Sequence record: AB910393.1 | Length of the DNA: 64,000 nt | Source: Pseudomonas phage KPP25 | Strand: one strand, 5' to 3' | Shown here: one piece after another, positions 25,689 to 58,440 of the stretch | Position numbering within the stretch: the first letter of the stretch is position 1 | Layout of the letters: every line of letters begins with the position of its first letter | Made by a program: the position numbers and the translations under genes | Notes under the pieces: model-generated | The model's input: the letters and a program-made list of their open reading frames with translations, nothing else | What the model was told of the DNA's origin: nothing | Database searches by the model: none

Positions 25689-26105
25689 ATGGACATCACT
25701 ATGGACATCATCAAAAGCAACACCAACGAAGTCGACACCGACGCTGTAATGGAAGAACTCCACAACATCATGGCCAGCTACGCCGAGCGCGGCATATTCC
25801 TGTCGCTCTACTTCACCACCAACATCGAAATCGTCAACAAGGACGGCAACGATTACGGCTTCCGTGCTGCACGCGGCATGGTCAGCGTACCGGGCTGGGT
25901 GCATGGCGGTGGTATCGGCGCTGTCCTGAGCGCTATGGGTGAAGGCGTCGAGTTCACCGACAACCCGATCACCCTGGTGATGCGCGCTGCTCAACATGCC
26001 GCGGCGCACCAACAACTGATCACCGAGCACATGAATCAGGTGGGCGAAATCGGCCTGATCCAGCTTGTGGATAACTCCAAGTTGGACGTGGTGAAAGCCG
26101 ACTGA
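25689..26105 (+). CDS. hypothetical protein, 139 aa
   Basis: Co-directional ORF. Confidence 0.5.
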   Translation: MDITMDIIKSNTNEVDTDAVMEELHNIMASYAERGIFLSLYFTTNIEIVNKDGNDYGFRAARGMVSVPGWVHGGGIGAVLSAMGEGVEFTDNPITLVMRAAQHAAAHQQLITEHMNQVGEIGLIQLVDNSKLDVVKAD

Positions 26106-26269
26106 TTTCCGCACGTGTGTGAGGGGATCGGAGGGGGCCGACCCGCCCCCTTCTCCCCTCCGCCCTTTCTGTATCGATCGCTAACCTAAGTGGTTGTTTC
26201 TTGAAACCAATTAGCTTTTTCTATCGCTGTAACGCTTTCGTTCCAAACAGGATGAGACTGACTCTCAAC

Positions 26270-26735
26270 AACCGTCACGATGTTACGAAATTCCGTCCAC
26301 CGACGAAAATTTCGTAACACGCTCCAGCCCAGGCAGCACTAGGGGCACAGAGCTTTCTGTTACGATGTTACGATCTTTTCTTCTTTATTCCACTACAGAA
26401 AATAAAAAAATAATAATAGATATAGTTAATAAGTATATAGGGCCACATATACACTGTATCTGTAGCGGAATAGCGCAGAACTTCGTAACATTCGTGACAA
26501 AAGTGGCTCAAACCCGCGTGGCACTAAGGCTCCAGCGTGTTACGAAATTTTTTGAGATCGTGACAATCGTGACAAAATTTCCCGGCCAAAACCCCGCAAA
26601 CCCGCGTGGCACTAAGGCTCCAGCCTGTTACGAAATTTTTTGAAGATCGTGACAAAACCTCGGTGTCACCCGGCACAAACCCGCGTGGCACTAAGGCTCC
26701 AGCGTGTTACGAAATTTTTTATGCACTTTCCGTCA
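26270..26735. repeat. element A: AT-rich, repeat-dense non-coding element (hairpin, GTTACGA and TCGTGACA repeats, three 45-bp tandem direct repeats)
   Basis: Hairpin 26281..26319 (12-bp stem, 14-nt loop). AT-rich core 26380..26450 in a GC-rich genome. 45-bp direct repeats at 26509..26553, 26597..26641 and 26676..26720. Homologous to 58130..58440. Confidence 0.85.
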
Positions 26736-26781
26736 CTCCGTGACCAGATCCTTCATTTCAGTCATCCACAGGAGCCTGGAA

Positions 26782-26985
26782 ATGCGCGTCCGCGACGTTC
26801 TGTTCTTCGCCATTTTTGCTTTCTTCGTCTTCATCGCCATGGCCATCTTCGTTTATGCCCCGGCAAAGGCCAGGAAAGCGCATTTCGAGGCGTGTTCAGC
26901 GCAAGGTGGGGTGTTGGTATACACCCGGTACGAAACCCCTCTATGCGTGAAATCTGACGCCTTCCTGTCCATCCCTAACTATTAG
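26782..26985 (+). CDS. small membrane/secreted protein, 67 aa
   Basis: AGGAG Shine-Dalgarno. Hydrophobic N-terminus. Confidence 0.45.
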   Translation: MRVRDVLFFAIFAFFVFIAMAIFVYAPAKARKAHFEACSAQGGVLVYTRYETPLCVKSDAFLSIPNY

Positions 26986-27397: not shown

Positions 27398-28474
27398 ATG
27401 CCGAGCTACGCCGATTACCCCATGCCTACTAAACACAAACGCTTGATCACCAAAGTCGAGGTATCGAAAGCGTTCGAGGCTGATCTGGACAACCACCTCC
27501 CGGTAGTGAGTGAATTGGCCAAGGTCAGAACCTACGCAGACTATGGACTGCGTGGCACGTCCAGCTACGACTCGTATGTGAATGGTTTCGACTTCGACAA
27601 GTCCAACGCTCCCGACGCTATTCCGTATATCGGCTCGAAGGCCCAACTCGCCAAAGCCAGGACACAACACCATGGCTTGTTCGACAAGCACGTGTTCAAC
27701 CTGGCTTTGGCTCGTCACAACCCCAACCCCGGCACCCTCATGAAACCTTCTAGAAGCCGACTCGACCGGTCCATGTGCTACAGCCAGTTCACCGACTGCT
27801 TCTTCGACGACTGCCTTTTTCAAAACATCGATATAGTCGACGCAACATTTACGAACTGCGTTTTCTTCGGTTGCACGTTCAACAACTGCGCTAGCTACCG
27901 CACCAAGTTCGTCAACTGCATTTTCCTCAGTACGTTTTTTCAAGAAGGCAAGTGGGCGAACGCCAAATTCACCGGCTGCAAAATGTACAGGGTACGCTTC
28001 TGCCTATCGACACATTCCGTCTCTACGTCGATGCCACAACTCGAATACGTTCAGTTCTACATGTCGAAACTCGTAGACGTAACCTTCGAAGGCGATATCT
28101 TCTATGACACTATCTTTCCGATGTCCCACTTGATCGGCGTGGCCCTGATAGATGTCGACCTAGCGAACGTGGATATGCGCACAGCACTCCACGTCGACAT
28201 CGAAAGCATGCGCGGATGCAGGCTCAGCCGACCGAATCCGACGCAGTTCATGTCGATGAACATCCACGACTACCCGATCGTGTACACCTCGAACGTCATA
28301 CAGATCGGTTGTCAGGCGTTCAGCATGGACCAGCTACGCCACTGCATCAGCATGGAAACGCAGGAGCTGTACCAGCTGGCTTCCGATGCGCCGAGATTGG
28401 TGAAAGCCCACCTGAAGTGGCTGCTCAAGACCATCGAGCGCTTCAAACCCAAGCCGCTCCCGTACGAGTGCTGA
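27398..28474 (+). CDS. pentapeptide-repeat protein (Qnr/MfpA-like beta-helix, possible DNA mimic), 358 aa
   Basis: More than 25 consecutive 5-residue repeats with a hydrophobic (F/L/I/M) residue at every fifth position (e.g. DCFFD DCLFQ NIDIV DATFT NCVFF GCTFN NCASY ...). Confidence 0.75.
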   Translation: MPSYADYPMPTKHKRLITKVEVSKAFEADLDNHLPVVSELAKVRTYADYGLRGTSSYDSYVNGFDFDKSNAPDAIPYIGSKAQLAKARTQHHGLFDKHVFNLALARHNPNPGTLMKPSRSRLDRSMCYSQFTDCFFDDCLFQNIDIVDATFTNCVFFGCTFNNCASYRTKFVNCIFLSTFFQEGKWANAKFTGCKMYRVRFCLSTHSVSTSMPQLEYVQFYMSKLVDVTFEGDIFYDTIFPMSHLIGVALIDVDLANVDMRTALHVDIESMRGCRLSRPNPTQFMSMNIHDYPIVYTSNVIQIGCQAFSMDQLRHCISMETQELYQLASDAPRLVKAHLKWLLKTIERFKPKPLPYEC

Positions 28475-38660: not shown

Positions 38661-41066
38661 ATGGACATCGCTTTCCTGTCCGCACCCGTGCCTCTGACGA
38701 AAACGTACAAGCAGCTTCGCGGACGCATCGAAAAATCGAACTACCCGAACACCTCGTCCTTCACCTCCCACACCGAAACACCGAAACGCCTCGAAGATTT
38801 CTACGCCGCCATCGTCGAGCACGCCAAGCAAGGCCACTGCTTGCTCAAGGGGCAGCTCAATCGAAACCTCGTCGAGGAATCCCGCGCTGGCTCGACCGAG
38901 AGCAACCAAGCCACCGAGTGGGTCTGTCTGGATATCGACGGCCTGGAAGTCGAATCCCCACAAGCGTTCATGGACGCCATCGGTCTTGGCAGTGTCAGTT
39001 ACATCGTCCAGTACAGCTCAAGCTATGGGGTACTTGATGACCTGCTGCGCTGCCACATCTTCTGCCTGCTGGACAAGCCGGTCGCTGCACCGCTGCTCAA
39101 GCAGTGGCTGATCGACGTGAACTTCAACACCGAGCTGCTGTGCAGCCAGATGTCCCTCACGCCGAGCGGCAACGGCCTGCACTGGCCCCTGGATATTACC
39201 ACCTGCCAGAACGACAAGCTGCTGTACATCGCGCCGCCGAACCTGATCGGCGTGCCTGATCCCTTGCAGCCCGACGAGCGCTACCAGCTCGTCAAGAACA
39301 AGGGTACGCACTTCAAGCTGCCGAAGCAGATCGGCACCGTCAGTGCGAACCGGTCGCGGATTGACGACAAGGTAAACGAGCTGCGCCTGGAAGCTGGTAT
39401 GCCCAAGCGCAAGGCGTCGAAGTACAACAGCATCGGCCCCGTCGAGTTCGTAGCGAACCCGGATCAATGCACCGTCACCGGGATTAAGGAAGACCGTGGT
39501 TTCGTCTACCTGAACCTGAACGGCGGCGACAGCTGGGGTTATTACCACCCGGTCGACAAGCCGGACTTCATCTACAACTTCAAGGGTGAGCCGACCTACA
39601 AGACCAAGGATCTGGTCCCGGACTATTGGCACGACCAGCAGCGCAAGGTCGAAGAGGCCGAAGAGTCCGGCGAGGTTGTCACGCATCTGGCATTCCGCGA
39701 CTTCAACTCGGCGAAGTATTACAACGGCTGGTATGACCCGGACACACGGGAGCTGGTACTCAAGCAAGCAGCCAGCGAGAAGCAATTGGCTGACTACATG
39801 GCCAGTCAAGGCCGCGCGCTGAGTGATCGAATCCCTATCTGGTCCATGGAGTTCCTGCCGTCCGAGGATTGGACGCTGAACCGTGACTATGATCCGCCGG
39901 TGATCAACACGTTCGTGCAGAGTCCTTACCTCCAGGCCAAGCGCCCAGCTAAAGCACCGAGTGTGCCGACGCTTATCGCGCGTATCATCCACCACGCATT
40001 GGGCGGTGACGAAGAAGTAACGGACCGGTTCTACAACTGGCTCGCCGCAGTGATGCAGAAGCGTGTAGCTATCGGCACCAGCTGGGTGCTCAGCGGCACG
40101 CAAGGCACTGGCAAGGGGCTGATCTGCAACAAGATCCTCCGCCCGATCCTGGGCGATACCTATGTCCAGCAGAAGCGCATGGACGAGTTGGACGAGAAGT
40201 TCAACGACTTCATGGAACAGTGCATCTTCCTCTTCGTCGATGAAGTGCAGCTGTCCGAAATGCGTAACGGCCGGGCACTGATGCAGCGAATCAAGAACCA
40301 GATCACCGAAGAACGGATCAGCATCCGCGGCATGCACCGCGCTGGGCAGATGATGGTGAACCACGTCAACTGGGTCTTCTGCACGAACATGCCTGACCCG
40401 ATCTACCTGACCAGTGACGACCGTCGCTTCAACATCGCACCGTTCCAGCCCAACAAGCTGCTGATCACCTCCGAAGAGATCGAAGCGATCGAAGACGAGC
40501 TGCAACAGTTCTGCGACTACCTGATGATGCGTGAAGTCGATTTCGACCTAGCGCGCGCGGTCATCATGACCGAGCAGCGTGAGCGCCTGATCAACACCAG
40601 CAGCACCAGCATCGAACTGGCTTGCGACGCTGTACGCCGCGGTGACCTCCAGTTCTTCCTCGACGAACTGCCGAGCGATAGCCAGTCCTTCGTGCTGCCT
40701 GACACCATGCTCAAGTTGTCCCAGTACAAGCGTGCGCTTCGTGAAGTCATCGAGCACGCTTCTACGGGCGGCAAAGGCGTAGGGCGGGATGTGCTCCACA
40801 CGCTGCTGCGCTACGTGCTACCGGACTGCCCCACGTCCAGCCACAAGTTCACTTCGCTGATCAAGCACCACGGCCTGTACGTGCAGTCCATGCGTATCGG
40901 TACGCGCACCACGCGCGGCATCGAAGTGGACTGGGTGGTCCCGGAAGGTGCCCTCGACCAGATCGATGGCGTCGCCGATAAACCGGTCAACGACGAGATT
41001 TCTCCGAAGACCAAAGCCGAACTGAAAAAGCACCTGAAAGGTGTAGCCGGAGGCAAATCGAAATGA
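38661..41066 (+). CDS. bifunctional primase-polymerase / SF3 (D5-like) helicase, 801 aa
   Basis: The N-terminal CLDIDG is an archaeo-eukaryotic-primase-like acidic motif. The C-terminus has Walker A GTQGTGKG and Walker B FLFVDE, typical of the P4/D5 helicase family. Confidence 0.8.
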   Translation: MDIAFLSAPVPLTKTYKQLRGRIEKSNYPNTSSFTSHTETPKRLEDFYAAIVEHAKQGHCLLKGQLNRNLVEESRAGSTESNQATEWVCLDIDGLEVESPQAFMDAIGLGSVSYIVQYSSSYGVLDDLLRCHIFCLLDKPVAAPLLKQWLIDVNFNTELLCSQMSLTPSGNGLHWPLDITTCQNDKLLYIAPPNLIGVPDPLQPDERYQLVKNKGTHFKLPKQIGTVSANRSRIDDKVNELRLEAGMPKRKASKYNSIGPVEFVANPDQCTVTGIKEDRGFVYLNLNGGDSWGYYHPVDKPDFIYNFKGEPTYKTKDLVPDYWHDQQRKVEEAEESGEVVTHLAFRDFNSAKYYNGWYDPDTRELVLKQAASEKQLADYMASQGRALSDRIPIWSMEFLPSEDWTLNRDYDPPVINTFVQSPYLQAKRPAKAPSVPTLIARIIHHALGGDEEVTDRFYNWLAAVMQKRVAIGTSWVLSGTQGTGKGLICNKILRPILGDTYVQQKRMDELDEKFNDFMEQCIFLFVDEVQLSEMRNGRALMQRIKNQITEERISIRGMHRAGQMMVNHVNWVFCTNMPDPIYLTSDDRRFNIAPFQPNKLLITSEEIEAIEDELQQFCDYLMMREVDFDLARAVIMTEQRERLINTSSTSIELACDAVRRGDLQFFLDELPSDSQSFVLPDTMLKLSQYKRALREVIEHASTGGKGVGRDVLHTLLRYVLPDCPTSSHKFTSLIKHHGLYVQSMRIGTRTTRGIEVDWVVPEGALDQIDGVADKPVNDEISPKTKAELKKHLKGVAGGKSK

Positions 41067-41887: not shown

Positions 41888-42649
41888 ATGGCCAAGCATA
41901 TTCAACTCACCAACACCATGCGTGAGCACATCGCTTCGATGCTCATGTGCGAGGCAGCGAAACCGAAAGCGGCGGACCTGATCGCTCGCGTAACGGATCT
42001 CAACGACAAGTTCTGGCATACGCACGCGAAACGTTTAGCCGCGATGGGTATCACTTCCAGTACCTGGCCCGACCTGATCGTGAACGGCGTATGCACTTCT
42101 GTGTTAACCGCCATTCCGTGCTACTACGAAACGAAGTTAGGTCAGTACAGTAGTAGCCGCTCGGAAGATACTTCCCTCAAGACGTACGGAGTGTATCCAC
42201 ATATCGCCTTGCGGACTTTCCAAGAACATGGCGTACTCATTCGTAGCCTGCTGAGTTCTGATGCTTTCGCACCGCTTAACAAGTTCATCACTACGGAATA
42301 CAAGTTGAACTACGACTTCAAGTTGAAGTTCGTAGCGTCTGCTACGGTGCCCCGCATCGTCAACATGTCCGTTAAAACCGTGGAGGTTGCGGGTATTCAC
42401 CAATCCATGGGTGAGCTGTGCGCTGACATCAACGAAGTGATCCGTGCAGCACTCGACTTCCACAAACAAGCACTCGAACTTCTGCGTGCGTGCCGCACTT
42501 CCAAGCAGCTGGAAGAGCTATTCCCCGAAGCGATGCGGTTCTTGCCGGCCAAAACCCAGGAGAAGAGGCAGGATATCGCGCCTGTCGAGCTGGCGGCCAA
42601 TGTCCGCAGCATGCTGAACAAAGGCGTCCCGCCGGTCATCACCAAGTAA
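41888..42649 (+). CDS. hypothetical protein, 253 aa
   Basis: Co-directional ORF. Confidence 0.5.
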   Translation: MAKHIQLTNTMREHIASMLMCEAAKPKAADLIARVTDLNDKFWHTHAKRLAAMGITSSTWPDLIVNGVCTSVLTAIPCYYETKLGQYSSSRSEDTSLKTYGVYPHIALRTFQEHGVLIRSLLSSDAFAPLNKFITTEYKLNYDFKLKFVASATVPRIVNMSVKTVEVAGIHQSMGELCADINEVIRAALDFHKQALELLRACRTSKQLEELFPEAMRFLPAKTQEKRQDIAPVELAANVRSMLNKGVPPVITK

Positions 42650-42661
42650 TCCCCCCGCCTT

Positions 42662-42687
42662 GCCACCGGGAAACCGGTGGCTTTTTT
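42662..42687 (+). terminator. rho-independent terminator
   Basis: GCCACCGG-GAAA-CCGGTGGC hairpin followed by TTTTTTG. Confidence 0.65.
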
Positions 42688-42736
42688 GTTACGCTGTAAT
42701 GTACAATGCAGCAGACTAATCCCTGGAGCTACCCTC

Positions 42737-43465
42737 ATGCGCTGGTCGATCAGTAAGCTGCACGTCCGCGAAGGCTGTGCATACCGCTACAAACTGAAGT
42801 ACATCGACAAAGTTCCCGAACCTGAACGCCCCCTCCCCCCTGGTAAGTCTGAGCACGCGAATGACCGCGGCTCTCGTGTCCACGAGCAGAACGAACTATT
42901 CGTTCGCGGTGAAGTGGACAAGCTGCCGGCAGAATCTGCTGACTTCCAAGCCTTGATCGAAGACCTGCAAGAACGTTTCCGCGCCGGCTTGGTCATGCTG
43001 GAGCATGACTGGTGCTTCGACGAAGATTGGGAACCCTGCTCGCCCGAAGAGCGGGCCGCCATCGCCATCGTCGACGTGGCTGTCTGGATCGTCAAAGATC
43101 GTTGGCTCCTGATCATCGATTACAAGACCGGGCGCAAGTACGAAACCAAGCACATGGATCAGATGCAGCTCTATGCCCTGGCCGCCTTCAAGAAATGGCC
43201 GTTCCTCGAACGAGTCACTACCGAACTCTGGTATCTCGACATCGACGAGATATCGACCAGCCATTTCACCCGAAACCATATCCCGGCTATCCAACGTGCG
43301 TTCCACAACCGCGTCGGGAAGATGGAACGGGACACCGAATTCAAACCGGCCGCGAATATCTACAGCTGCCGGTACTGCCCGTATAAGGACGGGATTTGTC
43401 CGCACGCGGTAGACGAAAAAACGCCCGTGAAGGGCAACGAATGGGCCTCTGAGTGGAAGATATGA
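42737..43465 (+). CDS. PD-(D/E)xK nuclease, Cas4/RecB-exonuclease-like, 243 aa
   Basis: An IIDYKTG-type motif and a C-terminal Cys cluster (CRYCPYKDGIC), typical of the Cas4/DUF83 family. Confidence 0.65.
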   Translation: MRWSISKLHVREGCAYRYKLKYIDKVPEPERPLPPGKSEHANDRGSRVHEQNELFVRGEVDKLPAESADFQALIEDLQERFRAGLVMLEHDWCFDEDWEPCSPEERAAIAIVDVAVWIVKDRWLLIIDYKTGRKYETKHMDQMQLYALAAFKKWPFLERVTTELWYLDIDEISTSHFTRNHIPAIQRAFHNRVGKMERDTEFKPAANIYSCRYCPYKDGICPHAVDEKTPVKGNEWASEWKI

Positions 43466-57945: not shown

Positions 57946-58129
57946 GTGCAAGTCATGGTGCGCCCTCCTGTGAGCTGCGGAAAGTATGCCAGCCGGCCCG
58001 GAGCTGCGCCACGCTGCACGTTCCCGCCGTAGGGGTAGCAGAGTGGCGGTTCCACAACTGGAGCGCACCACGGGCCTATTTGGTGCCCTACAGCCTGTAT
58101 CGATACCGTTGATGGTCCAGAGCACTACT

Positions 58130-58440
58130 ATTAATTGCAACGATGTTACGAAATTTTCGGAACGGGCCAAAATTTCGTAACACGCTGGAGCCTTAGTGCC
58201 ACGGGGCTTACAGCGATTTCTGTTACGATGTTACGATTCTTACTACTTTATTCCACTACAGAAAAAATAAAATAAATATATAAAGAATATAGATACTTAG
58301 GGCCGCCGGGGGTACAGGGTAGTATGTACGTGCTCCAGCTCCGAAAAGTTTTTTCGTGACATTCGTGACATTCGTGACAGCTTAGTGCCACGCGGCCTCC
58401 AGCTGACCCAGGCTGTCACGATGTTACGATCTTGGCCCTG
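58130..58440. repeat. element B: second AT-rich, repeat-dense element, homologous to element A
   Basis: Hairpin 58144..58182 (14-bp stem identical in sequence to A's stem, different 11-nt loop). Tandem GTTACGAT pair. AT-rich core 58245..58310. TTCGTGACA x3 at 58354..58380. The ~30-bp motif occurs inverted relative to element A. Confidence 0.85.

Follow-up and report, generated by a model that had tools for sequence, protein, structure and literature searches.

Element A is a non-coding region of Pseudomonas phage KPP25 (sequence record AB910393.1). It is located in a window of 64,000 nucleotides, the whole stretch of DNA that was analysed, and occupies the intergenic interval 26106-26781 between two plus-strand genes, the upstream one ending with a stop at 26105 and the downstream one starting with an ATG at 26782. 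Since the first 313 bases of the window are identical to its last 313 bases, the window represents one complete circular map of 63,687 bp. The gene layout, drawn from the phiR18 annotation and our own open reading frame (ORF) map, is listed in Table 1 together with the coordinates of the individual features. Phages phiR18, CRPAP1904 and YMC17/07/R4900a belong to the genus Kochitakasuvirus (KPP25-like podoviruses) and showed 96%, 95.5% and 90.7% nucleotide identity, respectively, over the 2 kb around element A. KPP25, phiR18 and CRPAP1904 are under development as P. aeruginosa therapy, and no description of the replication or transcription signals of Kochitakasuvirus phages was found in the literature searched. 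A previous reading of the letters alone (the sequence-only reading) had proposed that this region was a non-coding, AT-rich and repeat-dense island acting as a replication origin, as a cluster of three tandem early/middle promoters or as both. Its non-coding nature was confirmed, as no gene is annotated in phiR18 and its relatives at element A or at its paralogue, element B. Two ORFs (26365-26643 and 26524-26691) were rejected as coding because they cross the AT-rich core and the repeats, where phiR18 and its relatives annotate no gene. Rfam gave no match at gathering thresholds over the whole window, the hits with E <= 1 around element A being chance microRNA matches only, and no tRNA or tmRNA was found.

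Element A is built around an octamer, TGTYACGA, hereafter referred to as the box or iteron. When both strands were counted, this octamer appeared 22 times in the genome, 12 of them in element A, nine in element B and one elsewhere. GTTACGA and TCGTGACA, which the sequence-only reading had listed as two different words, proved to be this single motif in its two orientations. The eight or so copies claimed for GTTACGA were all found in element A, considering both strands, while TCGTGACA had four exact copies (26492, 26558, 26567 and 26647) instead of about five. The 13-mer GTTACGAAATTTT had six matches and the 21-mer of the repeat core four, compared to 0.00 and 0.02 expected, respectively. Because these counts are far above expectation, chance is excluded as an explanation for the repeats.

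From left to right, the GC-rich hairpin that closes the upstream gene is followed by a variant box, TGTATCGA, with only two copies in the genome (26170 and 58096), one at the left of element A and the other at the left of element B. Then comes a palindrome formed by two inverted iterons, whose 12-nt arms are 100% complementary and fold as single-stranded DNA (ssDNA) with an energy of -15.2 kcal/mol (z = -6.6). This is the 12-bp-stem hairpin that had been noticed at 26281..26319, its spacer now corrected to 15 nt. A tandem iteron pair borders the AT-rich core, across which the plus-strand boxes at 26358 and 26366 face the minus-strand boxes at 26483 and 26492. The left border of the core is marked by CCACTACAGAAAA, which is part of an inverted repeat (26388-26399 / 26459-26470). 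The core had been described as some 70 bp of nearly pure A/T; its AT richness was verified, while "almost pure" was an overstatement. Of all 60-mers in the genome, the cores of elements A and B are nevertheless by far the two least stable, with 17% GC versus a genome mean of 60.2% and a nearest-neighbour energy of -60 versus a mean of -92.5 (sd 5), and the next-lowest 60-mer has 35% GC. The interval of 110 bp that separates the terminator-like hairpin from the palindrome (26160-26270) carries the degenerate box-like words CTTTCTGTATCGAT and CTTTTTCTATCGCT and presented one variable site across five genomes, the flanking genes differing by 4-9%.

The right part of element A contains three tandem repeats, which the sequence-only reading had rightly recognised as direct repeats, although their length is 49 nt rather than 45 and their starts had to be moved to the positions given in Table 1. 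They are 92-98% identical and spaced by 88 and 79 bp. Each 49-mer consists of a GC-rich box, which we termed motif 2 (GCGTGGCACTAAGGCTCCAGC), fused to an iteron (TGTTACGAAATTTTTT). Repeats 1 and 2 are followed by one or two inverted boxes about two helical turns downstream, and repeat 3 only by a degenerate GTCAC...GTGAC palindrome. The distance between the last repeat and the next gene, previously estimated at around 60 bp, was measured as 61 bp.

Table 1. Features of the KPP25 window and related loci (L numbers are loci in other sequences)
Feature	Position	Strand	Remarks
GC-rich terminator-like hairpin	26121..26160	+	-14.3 kcal/mol, z = -2.2; closes upstream plus-strand gene
Variant box TGTATCGA	26170..26177	+	Left boundary of A
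Palindrome, two inverted iterons, each with AAATT	Arms TGTTACGAAATT 26281-26292, AATTTCGTAACA 26308-26319	.	15-nt spacer
Left tandem iteron pair TGTTACGA-TGTTACGA	26358..26373	+	8-bp period; borders putative unwinding element
AT-rich core, putative DNA unwinding element	26374..26440	.	17.9% GC
Right tandem iteron pair TCGTAACA / TCGTGACA	26483..26499	-	9-bp period; inverted relative to left pair
49-bp repeat 1	26505..26553	+	Two inverted iterons after it, 26558-26574
49-bp repeat 2	26593..26641	+	Inverted iteron after it, 26647-26654
49-bp repeat 3	26672..26720	+	Ends 61 bp before ATG 26782
Motif 2 cores in element A	26516-26536, 26604-26624, 26683-26703	+	
Element B	58096..58429	.	Paralogue of A, same plus orientation
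B variant box	58096		
B palindrome	58144-58182		
B inverted 45-mer	58169-58210		Faces minus-strand tail-fibre cluster
B other motif 2 copy	58184-58204	-	
B iteron pair	58221-58236	+	
B AT-rich core	58237-58299		
B three inverted iterons (58354, 58363, 58372)	58354-58379	-	Face plus-strand boxes 58221, 58229
B canonical motif 2	58381-58403	-	
B distal iteron pair	58414-58429		
Primase-helicase, 801 aa, candidate initiator	38661..41066	+	SF3 / DUF5906, NrS-1-like
Structural genes	~23.8 kb down through position 1, over wrap to 58,521	-	phiR18 annotation and ORF map
Early and replication genes	~23.9 kb to 53.8 kb	+	
Small cluster including tail fibre gene	54.0-58.05 kb	-	
Terminase genes	19.8-22.4 kb		
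Giant virion protein, 2107 aa	58521-63687 and 1-1157	-	Gene end adjoins element B
DUF5906+D5_N+PriCT_1	L006, L010, L011		Beside TGTTACGA cluster
DUF5906+D5_N+Pox_D5	L042		Beside TGTTACGA cluster
VapE/DUF5906	L063		Beside TGTTACGA cluster
DUF927+HTH_56, Cch type	L007, L014, L018		Beside TGTTACGA cluster
AAA_25	L021		Beside TGTTACGA cluster
Motif 2 copies elsewhere	L121, L127, L141, L153, L154, L152, L151:754-778		

The sequence-only reading had suggested analysing 26270-26735 together with 58130..58440, and the region at 58 kb turned out to be a paralogue of element A that shares TGTYACGA. Elements A and B aligned over about 250 bp with their parts in the same order: TGTATCGA; the palindrome of two inverted boxes, with stems that are kept and loops that differ; the tandem pair TGTTACGATGTTACGA, identical in both elements; CCACTACAGAAAA and the AT-rich core; a spacer of about 40-55 bp; and the inverted boxes, two in A and three in B. 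One of the two motif 2 copies of B, both on the minus strand, directly abuts the three boxes that border the core. The three tandem 49-bp repeats are absent from element B.

The distance between the cores of A and B is 31,870 bp, which corresponds to 50.04% of the circle. Similarly, the spacing was 49.8% in phiR18, 48.75% in CRPAP1904, 50.2% in YMC17 and about 49.6% in the distant relative IMGVR_UViG_3300009026_000010, taking its 62,440 bp as the full genome. Shared synteny alone could explain a spacing of around 50% and, therefore, this value is no proof of selection. Searches for further complete relatives with the 108-aa neighbour of element A and the C-terminus of the giant protein yielded short contigs only, and single-protein locus searches recovered close relatives only. 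The two cores are co-oriented, though their flanking genes sit on opposite strands. Element A is located 2.5 kb from the transcription divergence point. Replication forks departing from A would be mostly co-directional with transcription on both arms and meet near B, and those departing from B would mostly run head-on into transcription. Therefore, B could be a second origin, a partner resembling the crr of phage P4 or a site of fork arrival.

Conservation analyses showed that elements A and B were 96.7-98.7% identical among Kochitakasuvirus, the 2 kb around A ranging from 90.7 to 96%. In the five close genomes, substitutions were confined to the spacers or to T/C swaps at the degenerate position of the box, and the left tandem pair was invariant across the five close relatives. 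The distant relative, whose giant protein and primase are 42% and 59% identical to those of KPP25, also carried both elements in syntenic positions, with the same octamer, the inverted-pair plan, the inverted box pair with a 15-nt spacer and the core border ACAGAAAA...TTTTCTGT. The triple 49-bp repeat was absent from this genome. Thus, the conservation of the repeats, which the sequence-only reading had named as a test of its proposal, was seen for the elements in close genomes, where they are near-invariant, and not for the triple repeat in the distant relative.

The candidate initiator is an 801-aa protein that matched Pfam DUF5906 and the PHROG 'DNA primase', and that, among solved structures, came closest to the NrS-1 polymerase over the latter's helicase and tail (6k9c, E 3e-25). 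The NrS-1 polymerase is a primase-polymerase fused to a helicase that is hexameric and similar to those of superfamily 3 (SF3) (PMC7102993). No Pfam domain was found in the C-terminal tail of the KPP25 protein. Among 8,000 candidates scored, 2,234 homologues were retrieved at E <= 1e-5, many of them on 60-70 kb contigs. In five of the loci (L009, L027, L030, L031 and L034), an element was found upstream of the primase gene, and the plan in these relatives consisted of a terminator, tandem boxes, an AT-rich stretch, inverted tandem boxes, further pairs and the ATG of the primase. A canonical terminator appeared at the same place, just before the origin-like gap, in L027, L030 and L031. The iteron arrays lay at L027:9540-10001, L030:2575-3001, L031:2324-3001 and L034:1079-1501, directly upstream of primase-helicases with 42-45% identity, in uncultured phages of 60-70 kb. 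The approximately 300-aa proteins that precede the origin in the relatives showed no homology to any protein of the window.

The box word of these arrays differed among subfamilies of the initiator. L027, L030 and L034 (P0027, P0071 and P0050) used TCTTCCAA or CCTTCCA, of the CTTCCAA type, and their proteins carried the C-terminal signature KHHRIHM.KVWVD..RAVQG. L031 (P0056) used ATTCCAA, with the signature KHHRIQVKK, and one copy of this word was present in the truncated L033 (P0016) locus. The KPP25 subfamily used TGTTACGA, with the signature KHHGL.V.PCR. In addition, L009 presented a TGTTACGA cluster directly upstream of a primase gene with 40% identity, whose C-terminus fell outside the available sequence. 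Three C-terminal subfamilies therefore corresponded to three box words, a correlation that was replicated in three contigs for the CTTCCAA type. Because the box word shifts with the initiator lineage, the pair shows the behaviour expected of an origin and its initiator.

An exact search with TGTTACGATGTTACGA retrieved 19 viral and 85 genome loci. Most of the genome matches fit chance, since 52 of the 85 held only the two boxes of the query, in isolation. Among the loci with an octamer cluster arranged on the inverted-pair/AT-rich plan, all but L037 adjoined replicative helicase genes, and the families of the helicases found beside TGTTACGA clusters are shown in Table 1. These contigs ranged from 30% to 61% GC. 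BLASTP revealed no C-terminal similarity between the helicases, and the occurrence of TGTTACGA beside unrelated helicase families could be due to convergence, to a shared DNA-reading domain or to sampling chance.

Altogether, these results favour a reading in which element A and its paralogue B serve as replication origins of the iteron type, or as one origin with its cis-acting partner, in a circularly permuted phage genome, and we assign to it a probability of roughly 0.68. It is the best supported one and draws on the anatomy of the elements, their paralogy, their conservation, their association with helicase (candidate initiator) genes in relatives and the change of iteron with initiator subfamily, all of which were observed. 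The origin proposal of the sequence-only reading was thus backed by comparison, that is, by the paralogue, by a distant relative with both elements, by the helicase-adjacent plan in relatives and by the published plan of the Staphylococcus aureus pathogenicity islands (SaPIs). Several observations weigh against it. The candidate initiator gene adjoins neither element, lying 12 kb away from A and 17 kb away from B, whereas in SaPIs and in the relatives it is adjacent to the origin. L032 and L035 (P0013 and P0022) presented an AT-rich gap without clear iterons, and no such element was found within 10 kb in L028/L029 (P0012). Furthermore, the recognition-helix-like KFTS-L-KHH is nearly invariant across subfamilies with different boxes and, therefore, specificity would have to reside in the wing or in another domain. 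The presence of the octamer beside other helicase families may partly reflect chance or sample selection. Finally, GC and AT skews were dominated by gene strand and neither supported nor contradicted an origin.

The closest known counterpart is the SaPI origin: its iterons number six to twelve, and its centre is an AT-rich region with at least two opposed iterons per side; SaPI Rep is a self-loading helicase of the SF3 type that reads the iterons through a C-terminal winged-helix domain and needs no loader (PMC9371898). As in the SaPIs and other phage-inducible chromosomal islands (PICIs) and in the Cch system of the staphylococcal cassette chromosome mec (SCCmec), opposed iterons flank both sides of an AT-rich centre in the cores of A and B. 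By analogy with SaPIs/PICIs, the initiator would be a replicative helicase fused to or paired with a primase, without a separate loader, and the same octamer clusters lie beside DUF927+HTH_56 (Cch-like) genes. In contrast to SaPIs/PICIs, KPP25 uses octamers instead of penta- or hexamers, its origin is unlinked from the initiator gene, there are two copies per genome, and the palindrome and the three 49-bp composite repeats are additions. Moreover, its candidate initiator is a fusion of an NrS-1-type primase-polymerase from the class of archaeo-eukaryotic primases (AEPs) with DUF5906, and its C-terminal domain lacks a demonstrable winged helix.

Other systems offered partial parallels. The P4 origin (ori) and its partner crr share the octamer iteron TGTTCACC and are about 4.5 kb apart, crr being made of direct repeats that contain iterons, and the P4 alpha protein is a primase-helicase fusion whose C-terminal domain reads them. 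KPP25 would resemble P4 in having two separate cis elements with one octamer and a primase-helicase fusion as candidate initiator, but its elements lie at antipodes, about 32 kb from each other, and in each of them the core of boxes, AT-rich stretch and inverted boxes is complete. In the deep-sea vent phage NrS-1, whose polymerase and proposed origin were compared, TTTGGTTA is the word that the primase recognises on ssDNA and not an iteron array around an AT-rich core; neither iterons nor duplicated origins have been described for this phage. The plasmid oriV of the Rep_3 type is similar in that the GC-rich half of the 49-mer lies between the AT-rich repeats and the iterons of Rep_3 replicons, whereas the KPP25 iterons are of 8 bp and inverted around the core rather than one-sided direct repeats of 15-22 bp; no Rep_3 protein was found among the approximately 30 window proteins scanned. 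Unlike lambda-type origins, in which the iterons are inside the initiator gene and the AT-rich region is one-sided, A and B are non-coding and have boxes on both sides of the core. No DnaA box (TTATCCACA or TTWTNCACA) was present in A or B, with two loose matches elsewhere in the genome, and the same pattern scan, which also covered sigma-54 sites, found no integration host factor (IHF) sites. On the origin reading, the elements belong to a known kind, the iteron/AT-rich origins of self-loading helicase-primases, and what is new is their separation from the initiator gene, their antipodal duplication, the composite repeats and a GC-rich box common to unrelated Pseudomonas replicons.

From this anatomy we infer a mechanism for binding, melting, box reading and the firing of both elements. 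The SF3 primase-helicase would bind the TGTYACGA boxes, and the facing tandem sets, separated by a 60-70 bp core with 17% GC, would nucleate two helicase rings. The core would then melt, the primase-polymerase domain of the same protein would prime and the phage family-A DNA polymerase would extend. The outer boxes, in the palindrome and the 49-bp modules, would extend the array and might increase how much initiator is bound locally, bring A and B into a pair or link initiation to the transcription of the operon downstream. As a separate conserved box, the GC-rich part of each 49-mer would probably recruit a second factor, most likely a host protein.

The database search with the repeat, which the sequence-only reading had recommended, revealed that motif 2 extends beyond this phage. 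Across viral and metagenome sequences, 29 independent loci held exact 17-mer matches to the GC-rich half of the 49-mer. Roughly half of these loci shared a 10-nt upstream extension absent from the query, CTG(G/A)AA(G/C)CC(G/C/A), which was exact in 14 loci and had one mismatch in L122, with a chance of around 5e-5 per match. The complete box spans about 30 bp and reads GCTG(G/A)A(A/G)(G/C)CC(G/C)CGTGGCACTAAGGCTCCAG, also written GCTG(G/A)A(A/G)(G/C)CC(G/C)-CGTGGCACTAAGGCTCC-AG. In the annotated collections, it was present in 89 phage records and three plasmids, all of them from Pseudomonas, and it was absent from 5,426 complete E. coli genomes. In two replicons with Rep_3 initiators (L127 and L141), the box lay among iterons and AT-rich repeats. 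A P. mendocina plasmid presented, in this order, AT-rich CTTGTTTTT repeats, the box and nine GCTACAGATTCAATG iterons in groups of four and five, between which there was a DnaA box (TTATCCACA). The box also appeared with ACTGGGACAA iterons in DUF5906 phage contigs, downstream of a DUF927 gene with GGGAAC repeats in the P4-like satellite plasmid pHS87b, and at the end of the replication module of phage Persinger, where GTGACCA iterons surround an AT-rich stretch. In the phiKMV-like phages, which make up most of the phage records listed, it was located at around 730-790, with the terminal repeat on one side and the early sigma-70 promoters on the other. Its copy in LUZ19 lay directly upstream of P001, an antisense promoter of the phage RNA polymerase that was mapped by ONT-cappable-seq (PMC10914365). 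No description of motif 2 was found in the literature searched.

Judging from these contexts, motif 2 is probably an origin-associated module that serves as a site for a host factor. A broader proposal, which we consider tentative and rather unlikely to hold in full, is that motif 2 acts as a portable 'origin box', so far undescribed, at which a conserved replication or transcription factor of Pseudomonas-type hosts would dock. Unrelated replicons (Rep_3 plasmids, a P4-like satellite, DUF5906 phages, Persinger and the left end of phiKMV-like phages) would have placed it beside their own iterons and unwinding elements, and it would be present three-fold in one of the two antipodal, co-oriented origins of KPP25. 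The half-genome spacing (48.75-50.2% in five genomes) would have been selected so that each origin copies one half of the circle.

These data also bear on a different explanation, according to which A and B mainly control transcription, the 49-mers being tandem promoters, or promoter plus operator, and the octamers operators for an early-to-middle/late regulator. Element A is expected to hold a promoter, given the terminator-like hairpin before it and the long plus-strand operon that begins 61 bp after the last repeat. In the relatives, too, a terminator lies before the element and a gene after it, so that a promoter must lie inside. Likewise, the intact inverted 45-mer of B faces the minus-strand tail-fibre cluster, and the LUZ19 box directly precedes a mapped antisense promoter. 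Three tandem repeats upstream of an operon and behind a terminator are also reminiscent of T7 A1-A3 and N4 P1-P3, the comparison on which the sequence-only reading had based its alternative of tandem early promoters. That alternative was not supported, as no sigma-70 or sigma-54 site fitted, the 49-mers were unfolded (z = +0.5) and a scan of the large proteins revealed no phage RNA polymerase, although a cryptic one may exist. Specifically, no sigma-70 site exceeded the shuffle expectation in A or B, with a single weak minus-strand match in 2 kb, as many as shuffling predicts, and -35/-10 hexamers at the 16-18 bp spacing of T7 A1-A3 were not found in the repeats. The sigma-70 scan is weakly informative for KPP25, since nothing convincing appeared even in the divergent region, where only one 9-of-12 match was found on the minus strand. 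The sigma-54 pattern (TGGCAC-N5-TTGC, GG-N10-GC) had no match on either strand of A or B; motif 2 contains a perfect TGGCAC but has CTCC in place of TTGC, and its reverse strand reads GG-N9-GC. N4 promoters are small hairpins with a 5-7 bp stem and a 3-nt loop that are read by the virion RNA polymerase, unlike the unfolded 49-mers and unlike the KPP25 palindromes, with stems of at least 12 bp and loops of up to about 15 nt. In addition, motif 2 was confined in this genome to A and B and was missing from the divergent region (23.8-24.0 kb), from which early and late transcription must set out; its second copy in B (58381-58391) points into the AT-rich core and not to a gene; and its orientation relative to neighbouring genes is inconsistent, KPP25 differing from the phiKMV-like phages. 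The promoter explanation also leaves without a reason the change of iteron with the primase-helicase subfamily and the presence of the box in the origin regions of Rep_3 plasmids. Transcription control as the main role of A and B therefore seems improbable to us, and three tandem promoters as the main function are not favoured. Coupling of transcription to the origin, as at the T7 or lambda origins, is possible, the elements then being both origin and promoter.

A role as a centromere-like partition or pairing site, or as the pac site of the terminase, is very unlikely. The sopC site of plasmid F is composed of tandem 43-bp repeats, each with an inverted repeat, and element A likewise combines tandem direct repeats of about 45 bp with box pairs in opposite orientation. 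One of the relatives, L028, encodes a ParA/CbiA-like ATPase, and octamer clusters were seen near terminase genes in L063, L013/L017 and L019. Against these models, no ParA or ParB was detected among the approximately 30 window proteins scanned, a set that leaves out many small ORFs; neither B nor the distant relative has the three repeats; the two sites are separated by half a genome, and the terminase genes lie close to neither of them; and no role is given to an AT-rich core with inverted boxes. Least probable of all is that A and B are a selfish or mobile non-coding element, such as a miniature inverted-repeat transposable element (MITE), or a recombination hot spot with no role in the life cycle: the presence of two paralogous copies in one genome and a GC-rich box common to unrelated replicons, which could reflect horizontal spread, would fit it, but neither terminal inverted repeats nor target-site duplications were observed, both copies keep their syntenic place in a relative with a giant virion protein of only 42% identity, conservation is higher in the elements than in the genes beside them, and the internal plan of the elements matches that of functional origins.

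Other genes of the window deserve mention. A 358-aa pentapeptide-repeat protein (27398-28474, plus strand; Pfam Pentapeptide_4/Pentapeptide_3) is encoded among the early genes, about 600 bp downstream of element A, and may be a DNA mimic of the Qnr/MfpA type. An Nmad5-domain protein (41888-42649, plus strand), labelled 'DNA polymerase' in phiR18, is encoded beside a PD-(D/E)XK exonuclease (42677-43465, plus strand), and this pair may constitute a DNA-modification or recombination module. The giant virion protein had no Pfam match and contains an HExxH motif (HESMH), its PHROGs label being 'virion structural protein' alone; it might have a hidden enzymatic function, for instance as an ejected protein.

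As for the significance of the origin reading, a defined origin and its initiator would be of use in engineering phages, in deriving Pseudomonas vectors from them and in understanding defence systems directed against replication. The NrS-1-like primase-helicase family appears to use SaPI-style origins with subfamily-specific iterons and, therefore, origins could be predicted for many uncultured phages. The antipodal duplication raises the question of how a phage with headful packaging organises theta replication. Lastly, the presence of motif 2 in plasmids, in a satellite and at the left end of phiKMV/LUZ19 suggests that the initiation of replication, or transcription coupled to the origin, involves a host-linked component that has so far escaped notice.

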